In this document: one piece after another, positions 1 through 51,789 of the stretch | How positions within the stretch are numbered: position 1 is the first letter of the stretch | Layout of the letters: every line of letters starts with the position of its first letter | Source of the DNA: an uncultured archaeon | GTDB lineage: Archaea; Thermoplasmatota; Penumbrarchaeia; JASLWR01 | Assembly (NCBI GenBank): GCA_964430885.1 | Contig: CAYSHM010000023.1 | Location: forward strand, 1 to 51,789 | Direction: 5' to 3' | Length of the DNA stretch: 51,789 nucleotides | Notes under the pieces: model-generated | What the model saw: the letters and a program-made list of their open reading frames with translations, nothing else | What the model was told of the DNA's origin: nothing | The model's database searches: none | Translations under genes and position numbers: made by a program

Positions 1-127
1 CCGCTTCCTCTGCACCTTCTTCGGCAGCCTCTTCCACCGCTTCCTCTGCACCTTCTTCGGCAGCCTCTTCCACCGCTTCCTCTGCACCTTCTTCGGCAGC
101 CTCTTCCACCGCTTCCTCTGCACCTTC
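1..127. repeat. 36-bp perfect tandem repeat (3.5 copies visible, continues to edge)
   Basis: Unit CCGCTTCCTCTGCACCTTCTTCGGCAGCCTCTTCCA at 1, 37 and 73, partial at 109. Encodes EGAEEAVEEAAE on the minus strand. Confidence 0.95.
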
Positions 128-1708
128 GGCAGTGTCCGGGCTGAAATCCTCGGGCATATAATCCTCGCACGCATAGCAGTACCATCTCTGGTAATCCTCG
201 ATATAGTCTACATCACCTTGGCAATTGGGACATATCGGAGCAGCAGGTTTCACCTCTTCTTGGACCACTTCTTCTTCTTCGGTCTGTTCTTCTTCATGTT
301 TTTCCTCAGCGGCCTCTTGAGCAAAGTCTTCGGGCATATATTCCTCACATGCGTAGCAGAACCATCTCTGGTAATCCTCGATATAATCCGCATCACCGCC
401 GCACTTGGCGCATTTTGCTTCAGGTTTTTTCTCTTCTTCGGCGGGCTTTTCGTCATCTGTTTCTTCAGGTTCCTCCACCTTTTTCTTTACCCTTCTCTTC
501 ACGATTCTCTTCTTGATAGGTTTACAGATCACTCTTTTACCGGAAGGCAAGATGGCTATCCTTTCACCCTCTTTTGGAACTAGTTCTTCTTCAACTGGCT
601 CCTCTTCAATTGGTTCTTCGGCGGCTTCTTCTACCTGTTCGGCTTGTTCTTCCTTCGGCTGTTCTTCAAGTGTTTCTTCTTCAGCCGCATCCTTTGTTTT
701 CTCTTCCTCTGAAACCGGTTCGGCCCGGAAGTCCTCGGGCATGTATTCCTCACAAGTATAGCAGTACCATCTCTGGTAATCCTCGACATAATCTACATCA
801 CCGTCGCATTTGACACAGCTTGGTTTTGCCCCCACTGGCGTTTCCTCTTCCTCGCCTGCCGCTTCTTCTATCAGTTCTTCTTCCTCGATTTCCACTTCTT
901 CGGTGGGCTGCTCCTCTTCCTCTGGACTTTCCCCCTCTTCAATAGGAGCTTCAGCAGTTCCAGGAGTAAAATCTTCCGGTAAATAATCTTCGCACGCGTA
1001 GCAGTACCATCTCGAATATTCTTCAATATAATTAACTTCCCCAGAGCATTTTGGACATACATTTGTGGGCGTTTCCTCCTCGGGTTCTTCTTCCACAGCT
1101 TCTTCAGTTATTTCTTCAGCTGCCTCTTCCTTATCCCCGTGATCATGAGGCTGAAAATCCTCCGGCATATATTCTTCACACTTATCGCAGTACCATCTCT
1201 GGTATTCCTCTATGTATCGAATGGAATCCTTGCATGAAATACAGGTGGGTCCTTCCTCCTGGGCTTCGGGTTGGAATTCTTCCGGCATATAATCCTGGCA
1301 TTGGTCGCAGTACCATCTTTGATATTCCTCTATGTACCTGATTGGACCACTGCATTTATCGCATTTAGGCCAGGCGCCTTCCTCCTTCACTTCTTCTTCC
1401 CCCTGTCCCTTTTCCTCAGAAGGAGTTTCTTCAGGGATTTCCTCAGGTGCTTCAGCAGCTTCATCCTCAGAAGGCAATTCCTCAGGTGCTTCTTCCTGAG
1501 TCGCCTCTTCTTCGGCCACTTCCTCTGCAGCTTCTTCAGGTGCTTCTACCTTCTCTTCGGTTTCAGCAGCTTGATCTTGGGATTCTACCTTGGTTTCGTC
1601 ATCGTCACCCAGAATATCATCTGCTAGCATATCAAGAAGATCTTCTATCTCTTCAGTACCTTCATCTGTATTATTTTGTACATTATTTCCGGAGGTTTCT
1701 TCATCCAT
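1..1708 (-). CDS. Hyper-acidic protein with six tandem Cys4 Zn-ribbon repeats (3' partial, >=569 aa; absent from ORF track)
   Basis: Manual minus-strand translation from ATG 1708 (GGAGAGGT SD-like motif upstream) gives MDEETSGNNVQNNTDEGTEEIEDLLDMLADDILGD... with no stop seen before the window edge. Six repeats of CxxCxxxxxY[IV]E[ED]YxRW[YF]CxxCxxY[ML]PE[ED]F lie in Glu/Ala/Pro-rich linkers. No signal peptide or TM segment in the visible part. Confidence 0.9.
   Translation of the reverse strand, partial: MDEETSGNNVQNNTDEGTEEIEDLLDMLADDILGDDDETKVESQDQAAETEEKVEAPEEAAEEVAEEEATQEEAPEELPSEDEAAEAPEEIPEETPSEEKGQGEEEVKEEGAWPKCDKCSGPIRYIEEYQRWYCDQCQDYMPEEFQPEAQEEGPTCISCKDSIRYIEEYQRWYCDKCEEYMPEDFQPHDHGDKEEAAEEITEEAVEEEPEEETPTNVCPKCSGEVNYIEEYSRWYCYACEDYLPEDFTPGTAEAPIEEGESPEEEEQPTEEVEIEEEELIEEAAGEEEETPVGAKPSCVKCDGDVDYVEDYQRWYCYTCEEYMPEDFRAEPVSEEEKTKDAAEEETLEEQPKEEQAEQVEEAAEEPIEEEPVEEELVPKEGERIAILPSGKRVICKPIKKRIVKRRVKKKVEEPEETDDEKPAEEEKKPEAKCAKCGGDADYIEDYQRWFCYACEEYMPEDFAQEAAEEKHEEEQTEEEEVVQEEVKPAAPICPNCQGDVDYIEDYQRWYCYACEDYMPEDFSPDTAEGAEEAVEEAAEEGAEEAVEEAAEEGAEEAVEEAAEEGAEEA
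137..1363 (-). repeat. Six dispersed coding repeats (Zn-ribbon units)
   Basis: The DNA core GCAG(T/A)ACCATCT recurs near 176, 356, 761, 1001, 1187 and 1307, all in the same minus-strand frame (RW[YF]C). Confidence 0.9.
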
Positions 1709-1749
1709 GTTTTACCTCTCCTATCACTTTTATTACGTAGCGGTAAGGG

Positions 1750-1855: not shown

Positions 1856-4800
1856 TCACTGCAGCATGCTTTGAGTTCTGCAGCTCGGACATTCAATGGT
1901 TACGGGTCTTTCATCCGCCAAAACCTGCATTGCCGATTCGCAATTATAACAGATGACAGTTTCTCCCTGCGGTGTTTCAACTTCTTTCTTCATGGGAGGT
2001 TTCGGAGGTTTTTTCAGTTTTTTCTCCATTTTTCCCGCTTCGGGAGGTTCATAATCGCCAGGTTTCTTAAAGGTCAGGCCATCATCATCCCCCAGATCAA
2101 GCTTGGCATGTTCAGATACCTGAATGATCTCTTCTTCCCCTGTAGGACCTATCATATCATCCAAGGCCCCGTCCAGCAGATCGTCGATGTCGTCTTCATC
2201 CTCATCTGAGCCCTTTTCACCATCTACGGGGAATTCCTCTTCAAAAGCTTCTCCCTTGGGTTTGGCCTTTCCTTTTCCAGGCGGCGGAGGGGGTGCTTTC
2301 TTCTTTGGTTTGGGCAAGGGTTTTTCTTTTTCACCTTGGTCGACAATTCCATCCTTTTCATCCTCATCATCTTCTTTTGATTCTTCTCTCTCATCTTTTT
2401 CTTCTTTCTTTTGGGAGAGGTCAGATGTTGTTACTAGGGGTTCATCTTCTGATTTATCCTCATCAATATCGCCTTCTTCATCTTCGGTTTCCTTTCCATC
2501 CATATCAATATGCTGCGGCTGGACATCCTCCTTTTTCCTCTTCCGTATCACGATGATTATTATGAGTATTATGAAGAGGACTATTATTAATGCTATTATC
2601 AGCCAAAGAGCTGGAATCGCCCTATCTTGGTCATCATCCGATGATTTGGAGTCGGAAATGACATCAATCGTCCAGTTAAATGAATCATATGTATCTCCAT
2701 CGGGACTCTGAAGCTCAACTCTGAGAATTATCTGTTTTCCAACATATCCCTTCACCATCTTTTTGGAAAACTTATCACCTTTACTTTTCTTATCTTCAAT
2801 GTTGTTCAGGTACCATTTAATTTCGTACTCGTCATCCAAGGGATTGTCAACGTCGATCTCAACTATGAGCATTTTCTCAGCTATAACGGTAACATTGTCC
2901 GCATGGTCATCATCAAAATCCAAAATGGGGAATATATTCTTTATGGGTCTGAATGGTCCAGAACACTGGATTTCTTCAAGATGATTTCCCTCGTAATCGT
3001 ATGCAATAACGGCGATCCAGTAGGAATCACCACCTTTCAATTTTCTGCTCTGGTAATGGTCAATACGAAGGCTTGTATCGTCAATGAGGAATAGCTCCGT
3101 GCTTCCAGTCTCCTCCTTCACCACATGTGCTACATGGTTAGGTAGAAGTAAACTCACATTGTTGTCGAACACGAATACTTTATAATAAGCAAAGTCAGAA
3201 TCAGTTGCAGGTTCCCATTGGACATCCAGGGCGGAACCGTCGTCATTCGGAACATCTGCAGCTCCTATTCCAATCACCCTGCCGGGGGGCAGATTGTCAA
3301 AGCATTTCACTGGACCAAAGGGCACTACGGAAAGGTCTTGGTTCCCCGTAAGATCTTTGGCGGAAACCGCGAAGTAATAATTTCTATTATTGGAGAGGGC
3401 GCTTCCATCAATGGAATCGATCTGTAGTGTTACACTGTCATCGTCATCATTGAGATCCTCTTTATCCAAATATATTATCGGGTCCTCACCCGCAATAGTA
3501 TAGAATTCAGTTTCTTTGATATATATTTCATATGCAACCACATCTTCTTCATCACTCAGTTCGAAGGTTAATGTGAACTCTCCGCCACTATCGCCAGGAG
3601 TGTCAATGACCTTGCTGATCTCAATAGGTTCAGGAGGATAATTCTCTTTACAGATGACGGGTCCGGCCAGATTGATGCCGAACTCTACATTTTTATCCTC
3701 GTTCCATCTTTCATCAACTACTGTAACAGCGATATAATATTCCTTGTCCAGGTTGACCAAGGGCTTTCCTCCGCTAGTGGTAAGAAGAACCTGCTGAGTG
3801 GAGTGCAGATATAGGCTTATTTCGGGGGTCAGACCTTCCACACTGACAAAGGAATAATTGGCGATATATATATTATAGTGATGGAAATCATAGCTGTCAA
3901 ATGATGTCCACATTACACTTATGGCTCTTCCGCCAATATCTTTATAGGTTTCATTTGCTACAGCGTCAGCCACATAAAGCCCTGTCACTGGGCCAGGGGC
4001 AATGTTTTCATAGTTGATGACCGAGGGTGAGGAAGCGATCCGTTCATTGAAATTGCCGGAAGTATCAACTGCAACAACTGCAGCGTAATACTCCTCTCCT
4101 TCGACCAGATTTTCTCCGTCCATTTTCGTGAGGGTCGTATGATTGGTCAGTACATTACCAGCTTCCGGTCCATCGAGTTCACTTACATTAGTGATTCGCT
4201 CATCATCAATGAATACCTCATAATGCTCAAAATCCAAGGCAGTACACTCCTCCCAGTATACTTCTATACTTCCTCCCTGGTCATTGGGCGTATCATATAC
4301 CGTGACATTAGAAACCTGATCCGGAGCTATATTGTCCAGAGGAATCAGCTGTCCTACCTTGTTGTGACTATTTACAGTTCGGTTCTCCAACCTCTCGACA
4401 GAATTATCCACACTGGTTACGGCAAAAAAGTAACCCTGGTCATTGGATAGATTGGTAATATTGTATGAGGTACCAGTATAATTTGTTTCAATAGGATTCA
4501 GTGCATTCAGTGATACAATGTTATTGTTGCTTTGGTAGATATTATAGGTTCCGAAGTCGGGACTGGTGTTTGGCTCCCATTCTATGTGGAGTGCAAATCC
4601 TTCATCATTGGGGATGTCACCACCGGTAACACCGGTTACGCCGACGGGCGGATTGTTCAGGCTGTGTCCTGATCCGTTCACCACCTCAAGGTTTACATTC
4701 CCGTTGTAATCGGTGGCTGAAACTGCAAAGTAATAATCCACCTCATCCTGGAGAGGGTTGCCCTGGTAGCTTTCTATTAGATGGGTAGTGTTAGCAGGGT

Positions 4801-6211
4801 CAATTACCTCTGAGAACAGCGGTGTCATACCTGATACGTTATAGATAGGGTCGGTGCTTGCGTAAACATCATAGTGTTCAAAATCCCACATCTGACATTT
4901 GTTCCATTCCAGAACAAAGGCTCCGCCATTATCGTTTGGAACGTCAGTTACTCTAACGTTCTGGATTGGTGGTGGGGCGGTCAAATCGGGAACATAGTTC
5001 TCCAAACCGTATATTATGACATCATCAATGTAGAAACCGGTATTGTTCCCTCCTGCATCAGCCTCAAAAAAGAACCTGAATTGGATATTAGAAAAGTCGC
5101 GTACCGGGGATTGGAAATCCCACATGGTGAAACCCATGGGAACACCTATGCCCTTTGGTTCCGTGGGATCGACCTGCTGGTTTTGGTTTTCATCCAGATA
5201 CCAATTGGTGCTGATCCAGTTGGGATAGTTGCCCGCATATCCTTGAGGCGGGTCGTTAGCGTTGCCGAAAATATGGTCATAATTGGCGAATCCATCATCA
5301 CTCACCTGATCGGTATATATATGGTCATCACCCCCGCCAGTTCTTCCGCTGAGTTTGTATGCGTAGCTCAGAGGGTATGTGAAATCTTGGGGCCAGGAGG
5401 CACCTGCTTTTCTAAAATTGGACAGGTCGATTACCGGAGATCTGAGTTCCATTGCTGCATTATTGGGATATCGGTCGGGTGTCCCGTCATATCCATGGTA
5501 CCATGCATTTGGGACTGAGTGCGTACCAGCACCCACTGGTGTATCTGTGACATGCCACAAGTCGGTCTGTCCAAGGTCGCTGGGGACATGGGTCCACAAT
5601 CCTTCCCCGTTCTCGCAATCGTCTGCCCATTTATTCACCCAGCCAAGGAGGGTGAAGTGATCGTTTGACCGATTGGTATCATCAGTCACGTTTACGCTAG
5701 CAGTAATGTTGTATAGAAAAGCAAAAAGGAATTGATGAGAAAACTGGACATTGATCGTTGCACCACCAGCAATGTTGTTTATGGTCCTTGTAACATTCAT
5801 GACCTCAATGATTTCGAATTCCTCTGTGGTATTTGCGGTCCATATCTCACAGTAAACATCCACATTGGAAACGGGGTTTCCCAGGTTGTTGGTTACGGAA
5901 ACAGTGAATTCAGTGATCTTTCCCACTATACCAATGCTATAATTCCCTTCGTATCCCGGATCTGTGACCTCCCATCCTTCTATACCGCCATTATAATCAA
6001 TATTATCTACAGATACTTCGGTATCGGCTCGGGATGATATTGTAAATGAATCATGTCCTGCCTGCATGTTTTCTGGTTGGCTCAAGGGTTTGACCTTTGA
6101 ATCTGTTTTCAATTTACTGCTGAATTTGTCATCAACGATGGAATATAAGCTGGCCGAGAAAACAAGTAACATCAGTACAACAGTAATGGTTGTTTTTATT
6201 TTACAATTCAT
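1856..6211 (-). CDS. Large single-pass surface protein: CARDB-like + MAM/immune-inhibitor-A-like jelly roll + six FN3-like repeats + TM + acidic/Pro-rich tail with C-terminal Zn ribbon
   Basis: N-terminal signal peptide and a GFYIDDV strand. Six repeats of PP..V..V...DxPND.G......W...DF..Y..Y...YY.AV.A.D..GN. TM helix LWLIIALIIVLFIILIIIIVI followed by RKRKK. Ends CYNC-x17-CPSC. Confidence 0.85.
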   Translation of the reverse strand: MNCKIKTTITVVLMLLVFSASLYSIVDDKFSSKLKTDSKVKPLSQPENMQAGHDSFTISSRADTEVSVDNIDYNGGIEGWEVTDPGYEGNYSIGIVGKITEFTVSVTNNLGNPVSNVDVYCEIWTANTTEEFEIIEVMNVTRTINNIAGGATINVQFSHQFLFAFLYNITASVNVTDDTNRSNDHFTLLGWVNKWADDCENGEGLWTHVPSDLGQTDLWHVTDTPVGAGTHSVPNAWYHGYDGTPDRYPNNAAMELRSPVIDLSNFRKAGASWPQDFTYPLSYAYKLSGRTGGGDDHIYTDQVSDDGFANYDHIFGNANDPPQGYAGNYPNWISTNWYLDENQNQQVDPTEPKGIGVPMGFTMWDFQSPVRDFSNIQFRFFFEADAGGNNTGFYIDDVIIYGLENYVPDLTAPPPIQNVRVTDVPNDNGGAFVLEWNKCQMWDFEHYDVYASTDPIYNVSGMTPLFSEVIDPANTTHLIESYQGNPLQDEVDYYFAVSATDYNGNVNLEVVNGSGHSLNNPPVGVTGVTGGDIPNDEGFALHIEWEPNTSPDFGTYNIYQSNNNIVSLNALNPIETNYTGTSYNITNLSNDQGYFFAVTSVDNSVERLENRTVNSHNKVGQLIPLDNIAPDQVSNVTVYDTPNDQGGSIEVYWEECTALDFEHYEVFIDDERITNVSELDGPEAGNVLTNHTTLTKMDGENLVEGEEYYAAVVAVDTSGNFNERIASSPSVINYENIAPGPVTGLYVADAVANETYKDIGGRAISVMWTSFDSYDFHHYNIYIANYSFVSVEGLTPEISLYLHSTQQVLLTTSGGKPLVNLDKEYYIAVTVVDERWNEDKNVEFGINLAGPVICKENYPPEPIEISKVIDTPGDSGGEFTLTFELSDEEDVVAYEIYIKETEFYTIAGEDPIIYLDKEDLNDDDDSVTLQIDSIDGSALSNNRNYYFAVSAKDLTGNQDLSVVPFGPVKCFDNLPPGRVIGIGAADVPNDDGSALDVQWEPATDSDFAYYKVFVFDNNVSLLLPNHVAHVVKEETGSTELFLIDDTSLRIDHYQSRKLKGGDSYWIAVIAYDYEGNHLEEIQCSGPFRPIKNIFPILDFDDDHADNVTVIAEKMLIVEIDVDNPLDDEYEIKWYLNNIEDKKSKGDKFSKKMVKGYVGKQIILRVELQSPDGDTYDSFNWTIDVISDSKSSDDDQDRAIPALWLIIALIIVLFIILIIIIVIRKRKKEDVQPQHIDMDGKETEDEEGDIDEDKSEDEPLVTTSDLSQKKEEKDEREESKEDDEDEKDGIVDQGEKEKPLPKPKKKAPPPPPGKGKAKPKGEAFEEEFPVDGEKGSDEDEDDIDDLLDGALDDMIGPTGEEEIIQVSEHAKLDLGDDDGLTFKKPGDYEPPEAGKMEKKLKKPPKPPMKKEVETPQGETVICYNCESAMQVLADERPVTIECPSCRTQSMLQ

Positions 6212-6563: not shown

Positions 6564-6587
6564 AAAGAATTGCAGGTGAATGAATGA
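6564..6587 (+). repeat. Direct repeat copy 1 (SD + start region)
   Basis: AAAGAATTGCAGGTGAA-TGAATGA. First 17 bp are identical to 7122-7138. Confidence 0.85.
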
Positions 6588-7159
6588 TGACTAAAAGAAT
6601 CATATCGATGCTGCTGCTAGCAGGGATTTTACTCACAATTTTCACCCCGTCAGTAACATCTTCATCAGTAAAGGAATATTATCTTAAAACCAAGGATATC
6701 AAGTACGAAAAGATCGAACCGGTTAACGAGAAGATCGAACTTGAACTGTATGTGAAGGGCAATGTATCCAAAATTGATATCTACATCATGACCTTAAGTG
6801 ATTATTCAAACAATATGTTTCTGGAGCGGAACTTCACCAATGAGACCATAATGTTCTCCCATAATGTTTATAGTTGTAACATCACATTCGAACCTGAAGA
6901 TGATGATGACTATGTTATAGTCATGGACAATTCAGATAATTATCTCTCAAATGACACGGTCCCCGATGAGGATGTGAGGGTTATGGTCAGGATAAAATAT
7001 ACTAAGTCCGCCAAACCCATGACAATCAAAGGACTGATAATTTCCTTTCTAGCTCTGGTCTTTATAGTTTATTCACTGGTCCTTTATAGAAGAAAGGTAA
7101 ACAGGATCAGAGAAAAGGAAAAAAGAATTGCAGGTGAAGTGAATGAAGAAAAGCAGTAA
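6584..7159 (+). CDS. Small exported protein with C-terminal TM anchor (beta-sandwich-like ectodomain), hypothetical
   Basis: AGGTGA SD, signal peptide, C-terminal hydrophobic helix followed by YRRK. Overlaps the next gene by 17 nt. Confidence 0.8.
   Translation: MMTKRIISMLLLAGILLTIFTPSVTSSSVKEYYLKTKDIKYEKIEPVNEKIELELYVKGNVSKIDIYIMTLSDYSNNMFLERNFTNETIMFSHNVYSCNITFEPEDDDDYVIVMDNSDNYLSNDTVPDEDVRVMVRIKYTKSAKPMTIKGLIISFLALVFIVYSLVLYRRKVNRIREKEKRIAGEVNEEKQ
7122..7146 (+). repeat. Direct repeat copy 2 (SD + start region)
   Basis: AAAGAATTGCAGGTGAAGTGAATGA, identical to 6564-6587 except for one inserted G. Confidence 0.85.
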
Positions 7160-8690
7160 TGAGAAATCCAAAGGGATGCTTCGGGCAGATGATCCTGACC
7201 TGCTAAAAAAAATTAACTATTCCAGTGAAATGGTGATCCCTAAAGATCCAATCGAGAGGGTAATAGGCCAGGATGAAGCAGTGGAACTGGCAAAAATTGC
7301 AGCCAGACAAAAACGTCATTTGCTGCTTGGGGGGCCCCCTGGTACCGGGAAATCCATGATCGCTCAGGCCCTTGCTCTGCATCTGCCTGCCCCCACTGAA
7401 GAAATATATGTGGTTCACAATCCGGAAAATCCAGAGCGTCCTTTTGTGGAGCGAAAGAGCGCAGAGGAGATCATGAAGAAGGAGAGGAGCCGGGATATTG
7501 CCGAGGGGATCATGCTGTCGGCTACTGAGGTCCCGGGTGAGATAGCCATCAAACTAGGTTTCAAATGCAATAAATGCGGCATATATTCTCCGCCTCAGGT
7601 CTCGTCCTGCCCTGCTTGCGGTCAGACCAAGGTCGGAACTGAATCTGAAAATGATAAACGTTTCATATCCTTTGGTAATATAAAGATGGCCTTTGGACCG
7701 GGACGGCCTGCAAAGAAACAGGTAACTACCACAAGGAAGATTGACGGCAGGGAAGAAGTGGTCATCTATGAGAGGGTCAATGACCGAATCCTAATGATCG
7801 ACCAGGAGGCCTTGGAGAAGCGCAAGGAATTGAAATCCGAATCGCCCAAGAAGAGGCTTGTTAAACTTGACCGCAACCCCTTTGTATTAGCAACTGGGGC
7901 TTCTGAGACCGAATTCTTAGGTGATGTGAGACATGATCCCTACGGTGGTCATGCGGGATTGGGAACTCCACCCTATGAACGTGTAGTTGCAGGAACCATT
8001 CATGAGGCTCATGAAGGAGTACTTTTCATAGATGAATTGCCCCATATCGCTCATCTCCAGAGGCAGATTCTCACTGCGATGCAGGAAAAGGTATACACTA
8101 TAAGCGGAAGGAATCCACAGAGCGCAGGTGCCTCTGTGAGGGTGGAGGAAATACCGTGCAATTTCATTTTGGTGGCAGCATGCAATATTCAAGATCTGGA
8201 TAAAATACTCTCACCTCTGAGGTCAAGGATAATCGGTGAAGGTTACGAGGCTTTGATGGCCACGACAATGGAGATAAATGATAAGAACACCGGACTTCTT
8301 GTCCAGTTCATTGCCCAGGAAATTATTATGGACGGCAAGATACCTCATGCGAATAGAAGCGGAATTTTGGCCATCCTCGAGGAGTGTAAAAAGAGGGCAA
8401 AGGATACGGATGATGAAGATGATTCCTATTCACTCCGGTTAAGGGATATGGGCGGACTTATCAGGACCGCCGGTGATCTGGCCGTTTTCAGCGGTGATGA
8501 GTTTATAACTGAGCAGCACGTAAAGAGCGCTATCAAGAGATCCCGTTCCCTTGAACAGCAGATAGAAGACCGGTACGGAAGTTATTATGGTGGACTTGCC
8601 AGGGATATATCATCGGCACAGAAGAGCGCGTCATCGCCATACAACTACTGGAATACCCACGTCCATGATGATAAGAAAGGGTATGACTAA
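7143..8690 (+). CDS. Archaeal LonB-related AAA+ ATPase lacking the protease domain and TM insert, with Zn-ribbon insertion
   Basis: VIGQDEAV, Walker A GPPGTGKS, GDVRHDPYG, Walker B VLFIDE, NPQSAGASV, Arg finger PLRSRI and LRLRDMGGLIR are LonB hallmarks. CNKC..CPAC insert. Protein ends ~30 aa after LEQQIEDRY. Confidence 0.88.
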   Translation: MKKSSNEKSKGMLRADDPDLLKKINYSSEMVIPKDPIERVIGQDEAVELAKIAARQKRHLLLGGPPGTGKSMIAQALALHLPAPTEEIYVVHNPENPERPFVERKSAEEIMKKERSRDIAEGIMLSATEVPGEIAIKLGFKCNKCGIYSPPQVSSCPACGQTKVGTESENDKRFISFGNIKMAFGPGRPAKKQVTTTRKIDGREEVVIYERVNDRILMIDQEALEKRKELKSESPKKRLVKLDRNPFVLATGASETEFLGDVRHDPYGGHAGLGTPPYERVVAGTIHEAHEGVLFIDELPHIAHLQRQILTAMQEKVYTISGRNPQSAGASVRVEEIPCNFILVAACNIQDLDKILSPLRSRIIGEGYEALMATTMEINDKNTGLLVQFIAQEIIMDGKIPHANRSGILAILEECKKRAKDTDDEDDSYSLRLRDMGGLIRTAGDLAVFSGDEFITEQHVKSAIKRSRSLEQQIEDRYGSYYGGLARDISSAQKSASSPYNYWNTHVHDDKKGYD

Positions 8691-14661: not shown

Positions 14662-14689
14662 TTCTATTCCTCCGTAATCCTTTCAATAT

Positions 14690-14986
14690 TCACTCCAATA
14701 TAATTCCGTATATGTCATCGTCTTTCATGAGCAGATATTCCTTGCCCTTTATCTTGACTTCGTTTCCGCCCCATTTTCCAAACAGGACAATATCTCCAAC
14801 TTTAACATCCATAGGGAAGAGGTTGCCTGCTTTATCACGTTTGCCAGGTCCCACCGCTAGGATGCGACCCTTGTTCTGTTTCTCCTTTGCAGTATCGGGT
14901 ATAAAAATACCGCTTGCGGTCATTTCTGCTTCTTCTATCCTTTCTACCAAAACTCTATTACCCAATGGTTTCAGATTGATATTCAT
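14690..14986 (-). CDS. groES: Co-chaperonin GroES (Cpn10)
   Basis: LKPLGNRVLV, mobile loop TASGIFIPDTAKEK, AVGPG, VKVGDIVLF. GGAGG SD. Confidence 0.98.
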   Translation of the reverse strand: MNINLKPLGNRVLVERIEEAEMTASGIFIPDTAKEKQNKGRILAVGPGKRDKAGNLFPMDVKVGDIVLFGKWGGNEVKIKGKEYLLMKDDDIYGIILE

Positions 14987-15064
14987 GGTCCTTCCTCCAA
15001 ATTTTTCAAATTATTCCAATACAGGATTAAAAATATTCTACTATATATTTTCCAATTTACTTCA

Positions 15065-15137
15065 GGGCGGGTGGTATGTAATTTCAGCATTATTAATGAC
15101 TAATCATACCGATTCTACCGTGAAATTATTATCGCCC
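15065..15137 (-). promoter_or_regulatory. Nested imperfect inverted repeat in the putative groES leader
   Basis: GGGCG/CGCCC outer arms, GGTATG/CATACC middle arms, CATTA-T-TAATG core. Confidence 0.4.
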
Positions 15138-15153
15138 CATATGTCAGAACTTC

Positions 15154-15171
15154 TATAAAAATTTTTTTTTC
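15154..15171 (-). promoter_or_regulatory. Putative BRE + TATA promoter for groESL
   Basis: GAAAAAAAAA-TTTTTATA on the minus strand. The same TTTTATAG core occurs upstream of alaS and of the 186-aa gene. Confidence 0.5.
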
Positions 15172-34562: not shown

Positions 34563-34749
34563 TTCACGTCCTCTGGTTCCAGGTATGATTATCAAAACAT
34601 GTTTCCTGTACGATGGCATTTCATGTTATTGATATTACTTACTACAAGGTGCGATAATTGATCCAATTATTATTATTGATAATGGAAAGGATACGGTGCA
34701 ATCCCTTATCCCTGTGTTTAATAATCGGATAATGATTATTATTTCACAA

Positions 34750-41600: not shown

Positions 41601-43090
41601 TACTCACAGCCAATCGTTCAGGATATCTTGACCGGACCTATGATGATCTAAAGGTTGAACTTGGAAGGGTAGCTGACAGGAGCTTCATTCTTGAGAAATT
41701 CATGGTCTATGATATGGTGGAGGTTAGAGGAACGGTCACAAATGAGGACGGAAGGGCCTTAGGCGGTGTGAATATTTATTTGGGTGAGGCAGGAGGCTCA
41801 TTATATTGGGAAGCCAAATCCAATGCCAGTGGCGGATTCAGATTTGATACTATATACGGTTCATACCAGGTAGTGTTCAGAAGAGACGGATTCCGCGATC
41901 TGACCATAGATTTTGATCCAATTAACCAAACAGAAATATTGGATGTGGTGATGTCGGACGATACCCTTCTCCGAATAATTGTAAAGGATGAGGACGGCAA
42001 TCTGCTTGAAAGGGCTGAAGTTTCCATACAGAATGGTCCCACGGTGGTAGAAACCGGGACCACGGATGCTATGGGATTCTTAGAGCTTGACGGTATCCTC
42101 ATCCCTGGTACTTATATTATTGTCTTCAAAGCCGATGGATACAAGGAGGCCAGGAGGACCGGTATTGAACTGAGTTCAGGAAATGTCACGGAAGTACAGA
42201 TCAATCTAAAAGCCGAAGCTGTTTCAGACGATGGCGATAGCAGTTCCGCGCTTTCGTTGATCGGCTGGATATTGTTCATTATTGTGCTGATAATTGTCGT
42301 CCTGCTGGTAATAATTGTTGCCAGGAGACCTGCGGTAGACGGTAAGGAAGAATCCATAGATGATAATGAATCTGCTGATGAAGCGGAACCGGAGTCCGAT
42401 CTCACAGAGGGTGAGGGAGGGGATGCTGAGCCGTCAGCAGGGGCGGGAACAGAAGAAGTAATTGGCGATGGAACCGGAGCTGAAACAGGTGCTCAGGAAT
42501 ATCAAGCCCCGCAATTGGGTTCTGCTCCTATTGCAGATGAAAAATTGGCTCTTGATGATGGAGCGCAAAGAGACCTTCCGGCCTTACCTTCAGCTCCAGT
42601 CTGTCCCTCCTGCGGTATGGAAGCAGATTTCAGAAAGGATACGGATTCATACTGGTGCAAGGATTGCAAGGAGGAACTTACCAAGGACGTCGGTATATTA
42701 TCCGTGGAGGAATCGGAATCTTTGGCAGATGAGAGTGCTGTAGACGGGGAAAGTACGGAAGCTACTAAAGAAATCCCGGCGGATTCGGCTGAATCATCCG
42801 TTTCTCCACAAGGAGAGGATAGTGAAGTGGAAATTGAGCTCCAATCCGAACTTCAGGATGATAGTGGGGATGAAGAACAGAGGACCCATCAGGATCAATC
42901 TGCTATAGATGATGCAGCCGAGGCTTCGGACGAAGAGGCCGGTGCAACAGAAGATACGTCAACCACTGAGAACCCTGAAGAAAATAGTGAAGATGGTACC
43001 GTAACCGAAGGGGAAGGCCAGGAAGAGAGCCAGGATATAAACGAAGACGATCTTGATGATATGCTGGATGGAATAATGGACGATATCTGA
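35672..43090 (+). CDS. Giant (~2470 aa) single-pass surface glycoprotein: MAM/InhA-like jelly rolls, CARDB-like, Big_5-like and carboxypeptidase-regulatory-like domains, TM, acidic tail with Zn ribbon
   Basis: ATG 35672 with AGGTGA SD and a signal peptide. Three jelly-roll modules (FWHWY..GWYIDDI; FWHDF..GWYIDDI; FDHWY..GWFMTNL). DVTPPAVLETVP...VFDLVGN. TM + ARR. Tail CPSC..YWCKDC. Confidence 0.88.
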   Translation: MYSILSTRLTKSKWMSLFFVLLLLAPMGWMNLFSFSTNAVNPPDANLEEATMISGLSSFGSDEPLLIWDNDGGDQPDGLNGCESFINDSLASNGYQNITISAQGENLTAFNLTNYTVVFIVLGMGPGTGNISAPEMAELTAFLDNGGRLYVEGGDIGFQAEDASGSGEYANLWPYLGAQYQSNGTNQEYVVGCAPVITQNLSFAYTGDNASMDEIGSANGGFEILNNSGTGFGIANNKSYRTVLFTFQFGGLVDWGNFTTKDELMRRLMHFFAYEKKVDISVGKENLPTASFTDFETESDEGWTHGIVQGNIDCWERGLPTSGPNSAHSGTNVWATDLSANYLDFTDCALYMPRVDLFPNSKLEFWHWYNIERGWDFGQIEVQSQPGGNWQMISSFTGQSNGWVKETISIPNQFSGNVQIRFRIITDFIITAPGWYIDDIGLISDNGMFDHDDGYFVSNEVEIEPNVTVKNEGNVPAAFDLRARVYNQNNGTEVYNQSVLVNLTPRETMDVGFPQKWNTSTDVNATYIMEFMSLANEENGTDANNVTSFWIYVGIFTDLASQDVMFNVSDPFLPGINLTPKGKFLNLGNANISAFTASLKITDTNSTVIYWQNVSGNYLNLSWGNSTIIEFPVWQVPNGEDDYLVNLSHDFVDKDSGNDIYRTWVKGEEYYDAMVEEVLFNVSLPLNSSDVVNITVPIVNNGNIDALNFAVTCVVLNQTGSEIYNATNASVSVGLPNGNITRVAFDNIQLPSEEGDITVIIIITWPNDENQSNNLFMDDFPIDDHHDVGFPDPLDVQIVGEKQYDYFPLGPREIRTNIANFGNVNQTPTVRFDYAIEGPPRYLFFDDVEGSVANDTWTKVNFAGGQSQFHVVEPNSPHSDFHSPDHSWWLGQEATGDYADNNDAELICTRMDLRGETEATLNFWHDFKIAQDDILGIAYSLTSLDDPPNGMWQWYANWQGGNSGGWTQATYDLTPFAGQEFLLGFVALTQDNAGVPTVDDGWYIDDINITGPNPIVIDSHFVQAPELAPGQNATVTDVYDFQQNNTYFILPTTVLQGDENVANNDGYNTSMFMDFYDLSPTSIEVQGARTTFEKLDLSENDGGLIPGGRWSFEWGLPTNPTGPLSTGFNDNCWAVNLDSDYREHQDITLTYMLDLKNYTGAQLTFDHWYLTEEGNDGLWLEIKNGTNDDYLNLTPLGGYPSFTKVPWDGTRIPAYSGKSGFDPFFPEWRQPIFNISEYVGYVVEIRFHFCSDNVPNDPGWFMTNLSVIDPYTNAWYRMNSGEDCTVNFDFTNLGNIPSIQASAHLNVRGITDPGYSYQDTITISGIDPLALESDVFTTPWTPPAVEGLYWMNITLDIPNDLKPENSEIGIIVEVEDFHALAAKDILLPIENQAYALGDTIGIGALVRNWGTHPEQDVDVEIEIVDIDNASWAPVVLTDTLDDIPLKEDALMEFDWTIPDRLGARYMITLTVTHPLDENATDNVYSHIFYGLHKRSANGLFGFIVDNSSDSPYYSQALSGVDVLLVSRNTGDLMNTTQTDELGYYYFDLWDQVPGREYWVYYQKDWYYRSTYLLSLMPRTVYRMDMEMESSNLLPIARLMINGGESMTHYFIDNMELEFDFSSTLDNDDPGQMLTYRLESDISGLLFQGENDSFVTSLVSGSHNITLTVSDEMGGFASTSTTVISMNTSWKSYNIGVLTVELLCAGPGAIIIENQEVMPHLPAGYVDIHEDFHFNLKIQGDFFIEGMIITMTYTDDILHHNAYETDLGIFVYYHRPQTRSLAGWSELEVIERDFENNTLSVLNDNRTWQMDIDISMMAPEDVTPPAVLETVPVDKEKNASIYTDIYIVFSEPIQFNLLKKSDMTVKVDVVETKDYSLRYNDTERTLYIVMDSHPLDPNEKYSVKIDRVFDLVGNALEEITFSFRTKEPAVLKEKVHGYVRDKNLNPLSGASLLVDGDMVAVTDDWGYFSFYIQAGTYILTANRSGYLDRTYDDLKVELGRVADRSFILEKFMVYDMVEVRGTVTNEDGRALGGVNIYLGEAGGSLYWEAKSNASGGFRFDTIYGSYQVVFRRDGFRDLTIDFDPINQTEILDVVMSDDTLLRIIVKDEDGNLLERAEVSIQNGPTVVETGTTDAMGFLELDGILIPGTYIIVFKADGYKEARRTGIELSSGNVTEVQINLKAEAVSDDGDSSSALSLIGWILFIIVLIIVVLLVIIVARRPAVDGKEESIDDNESADEAEPESDLTEGEGGDAEPSAGAGTEEVIGDGTGAETGAQEYQAPQLGSAPIADEKLALDDGAQRDLPALPSAPVCPSCGMEADFRKDTDSYWCKDCKEELTKDVGILSVEESESLADESAVDGESTEATKEIPADSAESSVSPQGEDSEVEIELQSELQDDSGDEEQRTHQDQSAIDDAAEASDEEAGATEDTSTTENPEENSEDGTVTEGEGQEESQDINEDDLDDMLDGIMDDI

Positions 43091-43251: not shown

Positions 43252-43824
43252 ATGAGAACTGGAACTTATACAGCAATATTGATTTCAGCAATTATGATTT
43301 TGGGAGTCGCAGCTTTGATCGCCGGGGGGGAAGGAACCCGCAACGAAGCTGATTTCACGATAGTTACCACTAGGCCGGTGAATGGAGCCACGAATGTACC
43401 TGCTGACAGCAGCATAGTGATAAAATTTTCTGCTCCGGTCAACGATACTGCGCTCAGCATTTCCAATTTCATAATAATGAACACCGGTGACGGCGATATT
43501 TTCGAGGGTGAGGTAAGTTATGATAATACAACCTACGAGGTTACCATTTCCAACATGTATCATCACAGGGAAGGTTCCCAGAATTACAGTGGTAGAGAGG
43601 ACCAGGGCGGCATCCATAAGGGAGCTACAATTGAGGTGAAGATTATTAATGTGGTATCTGCTGATGGTAAACCGCTGATCGGAAGCACAGGCAATCCAGG
43701 GGACAATTATATATTCAATTTCGAGGTTGAACCAAGGGAAGCTGATGAGGACTCTCCAGGTTTTGGGTTGATAGCTGCCTTCTTGGTCATAGCCTTGGTA
43801 GTCGTATTGGCACGCAAGAGATAA
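43252..43824 (+). CDS. Big_5/SbsA-like Ig-domain protein with PGF-CTERM sorting signal
   Basis: Signal peptide, TRPVNGATNVPADSSIVIKFSAPV, C-terminal SPGFGLIAAFLVIALVVVLARKR. Confidence 0.88.
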   Translation: MRTGTYTAILISAIMILGVAALIAGGEGTRNEADFTIVTTRPVNGATNVPADSSIVIKFSAPVNDTALSISNFIIMNTGDGDIFEGEVSYDNTTYEVTISNMYHHREGSQNYSGREDQGGIHKGATIEVKIINVVSADGKPLIGSTGNPGDNYIFNFEVEPREADEDSPGFGLIAAFLVIALVVVLARKR

Positions 43825-48551: not shown

Positions 48552-51500
48552 TCAGAAATCAAAATCTTCATCCCAATTGTCATCCTCGTCCTCATCCCTG
48601 TAATCATCATCATCATCTTCCCAGGAATCTTCCTCGTCGCCCCCTTCTTCTTTATCATCCCAACCATCGTCTTCGCTATCCACATCAATTTCCTCTTCAT
48701 CGTCCCATTCTCCCCCCTCATCATCCAAGGCGTCCTCGTCGTCTTCTCCCCAATCATCATCATCATCGTCTTCCAGGTCATCAATGATCTCATCTTCCAG
48801 GGTGTCCGTATCCTCAGTTCTCTTATTCTTCTGACGTAGGGCCAAGAAAATTATGATAACAAGAATGATAACAGCTATTACAAGGAACAATATCCACATC
48901 TTGGAGCCATCCTTATCATCCCCGTTATCCCCATCACCCTTTTTGTCAGGGCTGATTGTGGATTCTGGTGAGGTCCAGCCAGTTAGATGGGTTCCCGGGA
49001 CAAAGCTACCTGCAATTAAATTGTTCAGGATTCCGGAAGAGCTAGTATAATCCTTGTGGCTGAAAGTAACATTCAACTCATAACCGGCCCATTTTGCCGG
49101 TATTGAGAATGTGACCTTCCCATTTTCTCCAGTAACTGCACTATCGTTGTAAATACCTCCACCTATAACTATTCTGATGGTTGCATTGGCGATCTTCTCC
49201 CCATCCCCGTCTACAAAGGGTCCGAGTGTTATAACAATGGGTTTCTTTACTGGCGCTGACCATCCCTGAAGGGCCTCAGGTGAAATTGATGTATCACCCT
49301 GGATGTTCACAAGCTTACCAGATGCAGAGCGGTAATCAGGATGGGTGAAAACGACACTGATGTTCCATCCTTTCCATTCCAGAGGTATGGTGAATGAAAC
49401 ATTTCCATTGACATCAGTAGATGTCCAGTAGGTATAGTTACCATCTTCCACCTGGATTGTTATAGTGGCGCCCTCTATGCCGTTACCATCACTGTCGGTA
49501 AAAGGCCCCATATTCAGTACCAAATCAGGTATTTCAGGAACCGACGCCTGTGTGCTGACTGCAGCGGTTCTATTTAGCATAGGAACCTTTCGGGATATGC
49601 CCTTTACTGTGACGTTCCCGATCTCACCCCCCAGGGCATCAGCCGAAGCAGTCACTTCCAGGGTGATTATCACCGTTTCGCCGATGCCTAATTCCGCTGA
49701 TTGGGATGATAGAACCGCCTTCCATCCGCTTGTGTTGTAGATTATCTCAAGGTCCACCGTATCCATGCCTTCTCCCTTGTTTTTCAGGGTGAGATTGTAT
49801 ACTGCCGTTTCACCAGGTTCAACGATCATCCCGTTATCAAGCTTTATACTGAAATTGTATTCCAGGTTCAGCACCTCGATGTTTATGGGAATGAACCGTG
49901 ATCCCTGGGAACTGATTACATTCAATTTTCCTATGAACACACCTTCTGAAGTGGCTTCAGGTATATCTATGGTTATTTCCACCATCCTATGAGTGCCCCC
50001 GTTCAGATCAAATGATCCTGGGGTGATATCTATAGTGCTGCCCGGAATTGTACCACTTCCGGATTCAAGGTCAGTAACAGAAAGCTGAATATTGTTTATC
50101 GCGCCTAAACCGGAATTCTCACTGAAATTAAGTGTCCAAGTTTCATTGTATCCATCTTCCAATTCCCCGAATATTCCGCCGGGACTGATCGTCAGGGCAG
50201 TAGCCTCCTCGGGTTCCTGTGAATACAATGTCAGAGGACCCACCATTGCAGTAACTTCTATTGTTGTTACATGCACCTCGCCTGGATTAATGAAACCCTC
50301 ATAGGACTCCCGACTTGCTTCCCGGTGGTCAATGAATCCCTGAATGTCTAGTTCATAATCTCCAGTGGAGATTCCTATGAGCTCTAGGGTGTAAGTTCCT
50401 ACATCGTAGATGGGAAGTAAGATCATTTCCTCGATAATACCCCCGTCGGCAATATTCTGAGCTTCTTCTGAATAGTGGTAGGTGTAACCATTGTAGGTGA
50501 ACTCAGCACCAGGTATCCCCACTTCCAGCTTGCCGGAGTCTCCAAGAAGACCCACATGATTTCCGTGCTCGTCATAAAGGTGTAGTGTAGCATTGGAGTG
50601 CAGAGTGAAAACAGCGGATAGATTTGCCCCTTCGGCAAGGGTCTGGGTTTCCAGGCTGAGCAATGCATAGGCTGTCGCCATTTCGCCATTTTCCTCATAG
50701 AATGATGTTCCAAGCCAGTAACTTTCATTCCAGACACGAAGACCGGTAAGGTTCTCCACCATGTCGTCCACCCAAACATAGTTTCCGTCCTCTGTGAAGT
50801 ATCCGTCCGCTACCTCGATGGTTTCGGTATCGGTCATTGTAAAAGCCTTTGCCAGTGTCAAATAATAGTAATATAGAGCTGAATCCTCGCCCCATCCGGG
50901 ATTCGCCTCCCATGTGTAATTCCTTGTGAACCAATCCAAACCTGCCTGTATTCGCTCATCTGCTGCATCTATGCCGCACAGCATATATGACCAGATACCA
51001 GCGGCAGTCATGCTTCCGTAGGCTTCCATCTGCTGTAAACCATGAGGCCCTTCTTCCTCGTTATTTGGAAGATAGACGAATCCTCCGCTGTTGTGTGACA
51101 TATACGACTCATTATGGGCCCATGGTTCTGTGTTGTATTCTTCGAGATATTGGCATCTTTCTATGAAATAGATTGCTTTCTCCCACATCTCATGATCCTT
51201 TGAAAGGTTGCCCCAGGCATCCAAACCCATGAGGGCCCATTGAGTGTTGGAAAGGTCCGATCGGGAATGCCCTCCATATCCGAATCCCCCATATTTCCAG
51301 TTGGTATTATTGATGTTCTCCCAGGGACAATCCTCATCCCACTGTGACCATGCCAGCCATTCACCAAGGGTGTTGATCTCGTCCAGGTATTCTGGGTTCA
51401 GGGTGGCCTTCAATGCCAAAATCGCCATTGAAGCATAGTATGTGCCCCTCCCTTCATCGCCTATGGGGGGATAATGGAAGGATATGTTTCCGGTTCCATT

Positions 51501-51789
51501 CACATACTTGGCGCTCATATCTATCTGGTCCACCAGATAATCGATAGCGTTTGCCACAGTGTCATTCTCTTCGGTAATATTATTGTTCAGATAGGAAAGT
51601 ACACACAAAGCCGTAACCCCTACGTCCCATATCCATGAACCGTCGTGGTTCTGCCGGCTGGTCAGCCAGTCGAGACCTTCCTCAATGATAAGGGTCACAT
51701 TGATAGGAGGATGTATTCCTGGATCCATAGGATCTGGATCCTCCCAATCACCGAAACCGTCATTATCATCATCAGGGTCTATCACATCC
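48552..51789 (-). CDS. Surface protein (5' partial): TSP3-like Ca-binding repeat + prenyltransferase/squalene-cyclase-like alpha/alpha barrel + Ig-like domains + TM + acidic Trp tail
   Basis: Frame is open to the right edge (DVIDPDDDNDGFGDWEDPDP). GLDWLTSRQNHDGSW, GGFGY..RSDLSNTQWALMGL, GGFVY, YGSMTAAGIWS, YYYYLTLAKA. TM + RQKNKR. Confidence 0.85.
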   Translation of the reverse strand, partial: DVIDPDDDNDGFGDWEDPDPMDPGIHPPINVTLIIEEGLDWLTSRQNHDGSWIWDVGVTALCVLSYLNNNITEENDTVANAIDYLVDQIDMSAKYVNGTGNISFHYPPIGDEGRGTYYASMAILALKATLNPEYLDEINTLGEWLAWSQWDEDCPWENINNTNWKYGGFGYGGHSRSDLSNTQWALMGLDAWGNLSKDHEMWEKAIYFIERCQYLEEYNTEPWAHNESYMSHNSGGFVYLPNNEEEGPHGLQQMEAYGSMTAAGIWSYMLCGIDAADERIQAGLDWFTRNYTWEANPGWGEDSALYYYYLTLAKAFTMTDTETIEVADGYFTEDGNYVWVDDMVENLTGLRVWNESYWLGTSFYEENGEMATAYALLSLETQTLAEGANLSAVFTLHSNATLHLYDEHGNHVGLLGDSGKLEVGIPGAEFTYNGYTYHYSEEAQNIADGGIIEEMILLPIYDVGTYTLELIGISTGDYELDIQGFIDHREASRESYEGFINPGEVHVTTIEVTAMVGPLTLYSQEPEEATALTISPGGIFGELEDGYNETWTLNFSENSGLGAINNIQLSVTDLESGSGTIPGSTIDITPGSFDLNGGTHRMVEITIDIPEATSEGVFIGKLNVISSQGSRFIPINIEVLNLEYNFSIKLDNGMIVEPGETAVYNLTLKNKGEGMDTVDLEIIYNTSGWKAVLSSQSAELGIGETVIITLEVTASADALGGEIGNVTVKGISRKVPMLNRTAAVSTQASVPEIPDLVLNMGPFTDSDGNGIEGATITIQVEDGNYTYWTSTDVNGNVSFTIPLEWKGWNISVVFTHPDYRSASGKLVNIQGDTSISPEALQGWSAPVKKPIVITLGPFVDGDGEKIANATIRIVIGGGIYNDSAVTGENGKVTFSIPAKWAGYELNVTFSHKDYTSSSGILNNLIAGSFVPGTHLTGWTSPESTISPDKKGDGDNGDDKDGSKMWILFLVIAVIILVIIIFLALRQKNKRTEDTDTLEDEIIDDLEDDDDDDWGEDDEDALDDEGGEWDDEEEIDVDSEDDGWDDKEEGGDEEDSWEDDDDDYRDEDEDDNWDEDFDF

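Follow-up and report, generated by a model that had tools for sequence, protein, structure and literature searches.

What do long acidic tails do at the inner ends of archaeal surface proteins, and do they do anything specific at all? This question is raised by contig CAYSHM010000023.1 of an uncultured member of the Thermoplasmatota, which we analyzed over its whole length of 51,789 bases (hereafter, the window). It codes for seven large surface proteins with tails of this kind, and for a multi-zinc-ribbon acidic protein at positions 2–1708 (the 2-1708 protein) that has sequence elements in common with some of them. A preliminary description of the window had proposed that the tails form a docking code for intracellular adaptors, with the 2-1708 protein as a soluble scaffold. 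We found that the tails are predicted to be cytoplasmic, and that in the two families compared they carry short islands conserved in orthologues well beyond shuffled sequence. These islands may be docking sites for partners inside the cell.

Twelve genes of the window code for a signal-like or transmembrane (TM) segment. They cover 35,283 of 51,789 bases (68%), in agreement with the two thirds of exported coding sequence estimated before. The TM map is from a hydropathy scan and not from a trained predictor. In nine proteins a hydrophobic N-terminal segment is combined with a single TM segment at the C-terminal end; a tenth, at 48552–51788, has the C-terminal TM segment and an N-terminus lying beyond the window. 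Seven of these 10 are built on one plan, consisting of an ectodomain, one TM helix, a K/R cluster and a long acidic tail (Table 1). N-terminal segments were present in six of the seven, the seventh being the protein whose N-terminus is off the window. The plan stood as it had been described (acidic disordered tails of ∼80–250 amino acids (aa)): the tails measured 83–255 aa, and their content of aspartate plus glutamate (D+E) was 27–62% compared to 15.4% elsewhere. The remaining three proteins have short, mostly basic tails (6584–7159, plus strand, 23 aa; 33012–34619, 5 aa; 43252–43824, 3 aa). In a charge-hydropathy analysis all seven long tails, as well as the 2-1708 protein, fell on the unfolded side, while five of five housekeeping proteins and six of the seven ectodomains fell on the folded side.

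The ectodomains are diverse. Pfam supported six of the seven labels given earlier, namely fn3 (FN3 protein), Metallophos and Big_5 (phosphoesterase), CARDB/CarboxypepD_reg (CARDB protein), Peptidase_C25 (C25 peptidase), Beta_helix/NosD with PKD (NosD protein) and InhA-like MAM with Big_5 (giant MAM protein). The seventh, a supposed prenyltransferase barrel, had sub-threshold matches only (SQHop_cyclase_C, 20.9 bits against a cut-off of 26.1; Prenyltrans, 17.4 against 26.5); we call it the toroid-like protein. The ectodomains had also been called unrelated. This holds for the main domains, but not for the immunoglobulin (Ig)-like stalk modules, which by Pfam recur among the seven. As all-against-all BLASTP of the seven gave just two weak matches, both in Ig modules, they do not appear to be recent paralogues.

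The side of the membrane on which the tails lie was read from three features. The flanks preceding the TM segment are net negative in all seven proteins, and each tail has at least two K/R within its first five residues. The density of N-x-S/T sequons per 100 aa is 2.26 for the ectodomains (200 in 8859 aa), 0.36 for the tails (4 in 1117 aa) and 0.30 for cytosolic housekeeping proteins (11 in 3640 aa). Archaeal surface proteins are commonly N-glycosylated, and so this asymmetry is as predicted by an N-out, C-in orientation. Cys4 zinc ribbons occur in three of the seven tails, and another sits in the short C-terminal segment of a small four-TM protein at 34750–35310; such ribbons are expected on the reducing side of the membrane, which argues for cytoplasmic tails. 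Flank charges, sequon density and ribbons therefore agree in placing the tails inside the cell, as had been assumed, and we take all seven to be cytoplasmic on this sequence evidence.

We compared the tails with those of orthologues in two families. A search with the FN3 protein gave 11 hits, 10 of which, at 39–46% identity, all had tails of 308–415 aa. A nearly invariant terminal zinc ribbon was kept in all 10. These tails also carry a juxtamembrane A-V-P-R-H-I, an L-A-L-P-P-H, a basic R-K-V-R-x-R-K block, an acidic-hydrophobic island (D-D-I-F-A-P-L-E or I-D-D-I-L) and a coiled-coil-like stretch. The tail alignment had 16 invariant columns and 56 columns at ≥80%, whereas 40 shuffles averaged 0.45 and 4.1 (at most 2 and 8). 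The coiled-coil-like stretch, of ∼70 aa and rich in Q/E/A, lies directly before the terminal ribbon in the 10 orthologues (P0151–P0160) and is absent in the window protein. Its sequence hints that the tails may oligomerize in these relatives.

The C25 search returned the window's own protein, six orthologues (39–42% identity by BLASTP; 38–40% in the full alignment) and one protein at 27%. All six orthologues have tails of 198–233 aa in which four islands are kept and the linkers are otherwise unalignable. The islands are P-[ST]-Y-x-[DE]-L-Y-S-[ND]-L-P, G-W-D-D-E-x-E-x-x-F, N-[IV]-L-D-[SA]-L-F-D-F and a C-terminal E-W-[ED]-[DE]. Thirteen tail columns were invariant and 27 were at ≥80%, compared to 0.65 and 2.9 (maxima 3 and 6) in 60 shuffles. 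In the full-length alignment, invariant positions made up 7.8% of the tail and 27.3% of the ectodomain. Eleven of the 13 invariant tail positions lie ≤4 residues from another, a degree of clustering equaled by random placement in 131 of 10,000 trials. Sharp islands against a background of low conservation are characteristic of short linear motifs within disordered sequence. Conservation of the tails in orthologues, which had been predicted and was found in both families at 38–46% identity, is the strongest evidence of the analysis; by this comparison the tails appear to be under selection.

Separately, the longest open reading frame (ORF) of the C25 peptidase begins 40 codons upstream (28698–28817) of the start in the identical database protein P0162 (1519 aa). 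The downstream start is probably the true one, because the signal-like segment fits it.

Motifs within the window were compared with chance by taking the best ungapped 12-mer (BLOSUM62) for each of the 28 pairs formed by the seven tails and the 2-1708 protein, against 200 composition-preserving shuffles. Five pairs were reached by at most one of the 200 shuffles, where ∼0.3 pairs would be expected. No shuffle reached the acidic amphipathic D-L-L-D-x-x-L-D-D common to the FN3 and giant MAM tails, or the W-acidic match between the phosphoesterase and NosD tails. One shuffle in 200 reached each of the others: D-D-D-D-W-G-x-E-D-D (NosD and toroid-like tails), K-K-P-P-K-P-P (FN3 and NosD tails) and the start of the zinc ribbon (giant MAM tail and 2-1708 protein). 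A regular expression for the D-L-L-D motif matched the 2-1708 protein and the tails of the FN3 and giant MAM proteins; only the pair of the latter two was significant, the match between the 2-1708 and FN3 proteins being reached by 26 of 200 shuffles. Tryptophan numbered 14 in the last 70 aa of the four W-acidic tails (280 aa in all), against a background of 1.42% (p = 6e-5), the length of 70 aa being picked post hoc. Recurrence of the L-F-D-F/D-L-L-D and W-acidic classes across families was judged from the pairwise shuffle test and by inspection. The motifs are not one code for all seven tails, and fall into at least two sets: a W-acidic set (phosphoesterase, C25 peptidase, NosD and toroid-like proteins), and a ribbon plus D-L-L-D set (FN3 and giant MAM proteins, and the 2-1708 protein).

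Some readings of these strings were dropped. Homology to the ribbon core was considered for a nine-residue string that follows the TM segment of the NosD protein, but 58 of 200 shuffles did as well. At the level of strings the islands also resemble PIP-box, MIM1/MIM2, PPxY and clathrin-box motifs, with no reader in evidence.

The 2-1708 protein contains six copies of a 39-aa repeat with 13 invariant columns, joined by acidic linkers. Its ORF leaves the window inside a perfect 36-bp × 3.5 tandem repeat at 1–127, which encodes the A/E/G-rich end of the visible protein. No TM-like segment was found by the hydropathy scan in the 569 aa seen, as the preliminary description had stated. That it is soluble, as also claimed there, is unproven, because its C-terminus lies off the window and 44 of the 150 best relatives end in TM helices (below). 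The claim that it reuses two of the tail motif types was borne out for the ribbon (E = 9e-8 with the widened profile described below; 1/200 shuffles), but for D-L-L-D it holds by regular expression and not in the shuffle test with the FN3 tail.

A single repeat was predicted to fold as a two-strand zinc ribbon with a predicted local distance difference test (pLDDT) score of 88.4. It scored below every Pfam and NCBIfam cut-off (best, zf-C17orf113, 19.9 bits against 29.5). Among solved structures the best profile match was the ribosomal eS31 ribbon (E = 0.19), and Foldseek found nothing in the PDB at E ≤ 0.001. The modeled ribbon fold thus appears generic and offers no functional clue. With the whole protein as query no homologue was found among 7,998 candidates, probably because low-complexity words swamped the search. 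In the Atlas the whole protein had no usable hit; residues 105–335 matched an archaeal double-zinc-ribbon cluster, mostly of Thermoplasmatota, with a best score of 0.85, which is a lead only.

Among 1.84 billion proteins, a profile built from the six repeats matched 700 representatives (E ≤ 1e-3), of which 145 had E ≤ 1e-10. We defined the ribbon family by C-x2-C, ∼11 residues, an aromatic-R-W-Y-C-x2-C core and a match to this profile; its signature is a core around Y-I-E-E-Y-Q-R-W-Y-C with a trailing Y-M-P-E-D-F. With a widened profile (529 instances) the ribbon in the giant MAM tail was also a member, while the ribbons of the FN3 protein, the CARDB protein and the four-TM protein had no match. 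Architectures were counted in the best 150 of the 700 representatives: 81 had no TM-like segment, 44 had N-terminal ribbon repeats followed by C-terminal TM helices, 24 had ribbons after the last TM segment, and one was mixed. In 68 of these 150 the ribbons lie wholly to one side of the TM segments. The group with ribbons after the last TM segment includes type-I ectoenzymes, among them an 1850-aa subtilase (S8) and a reprolysin-like protease. Pfam, run on 30 of the 150, found fusions to MMPL transporters, Ser/Thr kinases and SAP-domain proteins, and scattered matches of relatives to Zn_ribbon_6, DZR and Ribosomal_S27a were seen. A genome scan covered eight ribbon loci (two Heimdallarchaeota, two Thermoplasmata and four Bathyarchaeia), and in six of them the ribbon forms the C-terminal end after the last TM segment. 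From these profile searches the ribbon appears to be a wide archaeal family, often located at the cytoplasmic ends of membrane proteins.

Several relatives have features of their own. Seven (P0015, P0019, P0022, P0025, P0029, P0037 and P0039) begin with ribbon repeats followed by a DNA-binding SAP domain and, after a linker, end in one or two TM helices, an arrangement that suggests a membrane-to-DNA or membrane-to-filament tether. In P0033 and P0035 the ribbons are fused to Ser/Thr kinases. Two Bathyarchaeia proteins (L006, 5653–6084; L008, 5656–6105) keep the I-E-E-Y-Q-R-W-Y-C core, have lost the fourth cysteine and end a few residues further on.

Table 1. Coordinates of the surface proteins, the 2-1708 protein and other features of the window
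Feature	Position	Strand	Details
Multi-zinc-ribbon acidic protein (2-1708 protein)	2–1708	-	569 aa visible; C-terminus off window
2-1708 protein, ribbon repeats	1262–1378, 1142–1258, 956–1072, 716–832, 311–427, 131–247	-	Six copies
2-1708 protein, N-terminal motif	1613–1654	-	Acidic amphipathic D-L-L-D
FN3-repeat type-I surface protein (FN3 protein)	1856–6211	-	TM 2546–2611; 229-aa tail 1859–2545
FN3 protein, tail elements	2153–2194; 1994–2014; ∼1868–1957	-	D-L-L-D motif; K-K-P-P-K-P-P; terminal Cys4 ribbon
LonB-related AAA+ ATPase	7143–8690	+	515 aa; TIGR00764 (lon_rel) 333 bits, cut-off 516.6
Metallophosphoesterase + Big_5, type I (phosphoesterase)	9215–12835	+	83-aa tail 12584–12832
Phosphoesterase, tail elements	12773–12787	+	W-acidic motif; C-terminus aromatic-acidic
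GroEL	12988–14661	-	Pfam; carries G-G-M repeat tail
GroES, bacterial-type	14690–14986	-	98 aa; by eye from sequence, without family scan
CARDB/CarboxypepD_reg, type I (CARDB protein)	18934–22158	+	127-aa tail 21775–22155
CARDB protein, tail elements	∼21823–21993	+	Double zinc ribbons, then acidic stretch
C25 cysteine peptidase, type I (C25 peptidase)	24138–28817	-	166-aa tail 24141–24638
C25 peptidase, tail islands	24516–24539; 24405–24416, 24360–24371; 24234–24260	-	Tyr motif; W-acidic; D-L-L-D-E-L-F-D-L; C-terminal W-D
Beta-helix/NosD + 3 PKD, type I (NosD protein)	29037–32843	-	164-aa tail 29040–29531
NosD protein, tail elements	29250–29270; 29154–29180, 29082–29093, 29049–29060	-	K-K-P-P-K-P-P; W-acidic; terminal W
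Small 4-TM protein	34750–35310	-	C-terminal Cys4 ribbon at ∼34756–34824, not of 2-1708 type
Giant MAM/Big_5/CarboxypepD_reg protein, type I (giant MAM protein)	35591–43090	+	2499 aa; 255-aa tail 42323–43087
Giant MAM protein, tail elements	42596–42673; 43046–43087	+	2-1708-family zinc ribbon; D-L-L-D motif at extreme C-terminus
Surface protein with alpha/alpha-toroid-like (sub-threshold), MG4 and CarboxypepD_reg domains (toroid-like protein)	48552–51788	-	N-terminus off window
Toroid-like protein, tail	48555–48833	-	93 aa, 62% D+E, five W-acidic sites

The other contents of the window are ordinary for the most part. It is 93% coding with a G+C content of 37–47%, and no tRNA or Rfam match was found in it. 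Pfam identified ribosomal protein S19e and a PDCD5-like DNA-binding protein; 3′ of these, two small ORFs on the plus strand (16306–16461 and 16515–16787) resemble L39e and L31e by eye. Other housekeeping genes code for both aconitase-X subunits, phenylalanyl-tRNA synthetase (PheRS) beta, alanyl-tRNA synthetase (AlaRS) and an ArsR-type helix-turn-helix protein. A GroES-GroEL operon of bacterial type (12988–14986, minus strand) stands in this archaeal context, and a 168-aa ORF antisense to GroES (14652–15158, plus strand) looks spurious. The LonB-related ATPase is without a protease domain or a TM segment and has a Cys4 insertion. Its gene overlaps that of the short-tailed protein at 6584–7159 by 17 bases, and the two appear to form an operon with the genes of the ArsR-type protein and the phosphoesterase. 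The small four-TM protein is a further membrane protein bearing a cytoplasmic ribbon.

No close relative of the source genome was found through PheRS beta (exact 8-residue peptides against 185,579 species genomes, one each; 35 pattern matches). The nearest homologues of two surface proteins are at ∼40–46% identity only, and one C25 peptidase orthologue carries the NCBI name 'Candidatus Thermoplasmatota archaeon', in line with the phylum presumed in the preliminary description. The source lineage seems to be poorly represented among reference genomes.

Three kinds of known system bear comparison with these proteins. PGF-CTERM proteins, the substrates of archaeosortases, are short-tailed archaeal surface anchors. 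The seven proteins share with such anchors a signal at the N-terminus, a large ectodomain rich in Ig modules, and a lone C-terminal TM segment with a basic cluster behind it. They differ from them in running 83–255 aa past the basic cluster, with islands and zinc ribbons; the window's three short-tailed proteins do end in the manner of such anchors. In a recent preprint, ordinary TM-anchored archaeal S-layer proteins are likewise given a short, highly basic cytoplasmic tail (bioRxiv 10.64898/2026.08.21.746120). An NCBIfam scan of six of the seven tails at E ≤ 0.01 left five unmatched, gave zinc-ribbon models only for the CARDB tail, and found no sorting-signal model. That tail is a true member of the Pfam double zinc ribbons (DZR PF12773, Zn_ribbon_3 PF13248, Zn_ribbon_6 PF07191), being above the cut-offs of DZR (33.2 bits against 27.3) and Zn_ribbon_3 (49.6 against 27). 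Neither of these two cut-offs was reached by the ribbons of the 2-1708, FN3 and giant MAM proteins, and the DZR and Zn_ribbon models omit the core and trailing signature of the 2-1708 ribbon.

Among eukaryotic proteins, the tails of calsyntenins carry W-acidic motifs for kinesin light chain. Tyrosine-based and acidic dileucine sorting signals are described for type-I receptor tails (PMC2882754). The tails of the window resemble these in being disordered and in carrying several short islands, whose strings would be alike (Y-x-x-hydrophobic, acidic-dileucine-like and [LM]-E-W-[DE]-[DE]-like). This would be a likeness in working and not in ancestry, with no homology implied. To our knowledge, the eukaryotic readers (adaptor complexes, kinesin light chain) are not known in archaea of this phylum.

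By analogy, the nearest functional precedent would be CdpC (HVO_0399, Pfam DUF7093) of Haloferax volcanii. CdpC is reported to consist of a ribbon, a long disordered linker and a second ribbon, the C-terminal ribbon binding FtsZ1 (bioRxiv 10.64898/2026.07.16.738847). The 2-1708 protein, with its six ribbons and acidic linkers, similarly has zinc ribbons joined by long disordered linkers. CdpC is reported to act at the cytoplasmic face of the membrane with a ribbon as the protein-binding element, and the system predicted here would be alike in both respects. CdpC differs in having two ribbons plus an amphipathic helix and in not being the tail of a surface protein; the 2-1708 protein has at least six ribbons of another type. 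The N-terminal amphipathic helix of CdpC is given there as binding the membrane; the N-terminal motif of the 2-1708 protein is acidic, unlike a membrane-binding helix. In a single-sequence scan at E ≤ 10, DUF7093 was matched by neither the 2-1708 protein nor the tails nor the relatives P0001 and P0003. For this reason we do not file the 2-1708 protein as a member of CdpC/DUF7093.

The working of the tails that we propose is as follows. A single C-terminal TM helix would anchor large surface hydrolases and adhesin-like proteins, and the long, acidic, intrinsically disordered tails would extend them into the cytoplasm. Each tail may be seen as a juxtamembrane K/R cluster followed by variable acidic linkers, in some cases a Lys/Pro-rich basic block, and short conserved islands. 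Four kinds of island would be distinguished: the Tyr motif Y-x-D-L-Y-S-N-L-P, W-acidic sites (among them a C-terminal W-[DE]), acidic amphipathic D-L-L-D-x-L/L-D-x-L-F-D-F, and Cys4 zinc ribbons of at least three types. Islands and ribbons would be docking sites for partners in the cytoplasm or cortex, and these partners would place the surface proteins, gather them into clusters or control their turnover. Having six or more ribbons, acidic linkers and a single D-L-L-D motif, the 2-1708 protein would be a multivalent member of this network and may be membrane-anchored. We judge that docking in this general form could turn out right or wrong about equally. Its wider version is doubtful though possible: a cortical docking of Thermoplasmatota type, in which a vocabulary of tail motifs couples surface enzymes and adhesins to a multivalent scaffold or cytoskeleton, with the ribbon module reused on the cytoplasmic termini of transporters, proteases and kinases in Asgard archaea, Bathyarchaeia and Thermoplasmata.

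Several observations weigh against docking. No adaptor or other binding partner for the tails was found by any analysis run, so docking is plausible but inferred. Co-folding of two 2-1708 ribbons and zinc with the C25 tail (alignment of seven) scored 0.00 twice, with a pLDDT of <50 for the partner, in runs without controls; this counts neither for nor against binding. The orthologue comparison covers two of the seven families, and its shuffle controls ignore common descent, so that some similarity at ∼40% identity is expected without selection. The FN3 protein of the window is a shorter variant lacking L-A-L-P-P-H, F-A-P-L and the coiled-coil-like stretch. The more distant homologues differ too: P0161, at 27% identity to the FN3 protein, has a tail of 22 aa, and P0169, at 27% to the C25 peptidase, has one of 245 aa with 17% D+E and no C-terminal W-acidic end. 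The motif excess, expected from the preliminary description, was confirmed for the five pairs given above, but the other 23 of 28 were not above shuffles, and the CARDB tail had no significant motif in common with any other in that test. Tail by tail, W enrichment was nominally significant only in the toroid-like protein (p = 0.011; p = 0.09–0.33 in the others). The tail ribbons also differ in type, with the giant MAM ribbon alone matching the 2-1708 type. Of the proposed docking code, then, cytoplasmic placement, conservation and motif excess stood, while an adaptor, a soluble scaffold and a single code were not supported.

Docking with a named partner would have the ribbon tails and the 2-1708 protein tether membrane proteins to an FtsZ cytoskeleton in the manner of CdpC. 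The anchoring of FtsZ1 by the CdpC ribbon speaks for this version, as do the remote multi-ribbon homologues that the preprint places in 'all classes of Thermoplasmatota' (bioRxiv 10.64898/2026.07.16.738847). The 2-1708 protein, which comes from such a lineage, has multiple ribbons and disordered linkers, and the 44 of 150 family representatives with C-terminal TM anchors also suit a tether. Yet CdpC is a DUF7093 protein, which the 2-1708 protein is not at E ≤ 10. The remote homologues of CdpC, according to the same preprint, have no apparent unstructured linker and are nearly absent from Thermoproteota (bioRxiv 10.64898/2026.07.16.738847), while the 2-1708 ribbon family has long linkers and four Bathyarchaeia loci. 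The window has no FtsZ gene, and S8 proteases, MMPL transporters and kinases would make an odd collection of Z-ring anchors. This analogy is unlikely to hold. Clustering might also come about without adaptors, if the tails, as block polyampholytes, bound each other or the inner leaflet (through divalent cations and interfacial Trp) and formed a cortical condensate. Basic and acidic blocks do alternate in the FN3 and NosD tails and in both tested orthologue families, W and F lie inside acidic runs, and the 2-1708 protein is multivalent. A charge pattern, however, needs no conservation residue by residue such as that of Y-x-D-L-Y-S-N-L-P and L-D-x-L-F-D-F, and the phosphoesterase, CARDB and toroid-like tails are without a mid-tail basic block. 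We regard this mechanism as rather unlikely.

The islands, above all the C-terminal W-[DE], might instead be degrons or extraction tags by which membrane-proximal AAA+ machines carry out quality control of these very large surface proteins. A motif does stand at the extreme C-terminus in the C25 peptidase and its orthologues (seven of seven) and in the NosD, toroid-like and giant MAM proteins, and a LonB-related AAA+ gene lies in the window. Nothing ties this ATPase to the tails, its protease domain is missing, and several of the islands are internal and not terminal, so that turnover signals are distinctly improbable. We give the same low standing to the idea that the tails have no specific function and are low-complexity acidic ballast, or entropic spacers holding the C-terminus in the cytoplasm. 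Their extreme composition (up to 62% D+E), the wide variation of the linkers in length and sequence, the tandem-repeat expansions (1–127 and 48754–48801) and the 23 pairs that did not exceed shuffles would all fit ballast. It does not account for islands that are clustered and many-fold above shuffled controls in both tested families, or for folded zinc ribbons embedded in tails, and three type-I proteins of the same window manage without long tails. Finally, were the topology reversed and the tails extracellular, the net negative flanks before all seven TM segments, the K/R clusters after them and the Cys4 ribbons would be out of place, and sequons would not be expected at the cytosolic level, about six-fold below the ectodomains. 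No result spoke for this orientation, which we consider very improbable.

Type-I anchoring and zinc ribbons are known already; as far as we found, the vocabulary of the tails and the ribbon family are new, since our literature search turned up neither this ribbon family nor any account of archaeal surface proteins with long, motif-bearing tails in the cytoplasm. Archaeal surface proteins have been described, as far as we found, as ending just past the membrane anchor, and the use of long cytoplasmic tails and their short linear motifs for signaling or sorting is held to be a eukaryotic habit. Islands fixed across ∼60% divergence would be a concrete argument that a wall-less or S-layer archaeon couples its surface enzymes to the cell interior. 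The unnamed ribbon module, with its 700 representative clusters, appears at the cytoplasmic termini of diverse archaeal membrane proteins and in multivalent repeat proteins, and the binding of FtsZ1 by a haloarchaeal ribbon points to a first candidate ligand for such modules. Partner searches could start directly from the invariant W, F and Y residues. Cortical docking, if true, would be a prokaryotic counterpart, of independent origin, of the sorting and anchoring of receptors by their tails in eukaryotes.

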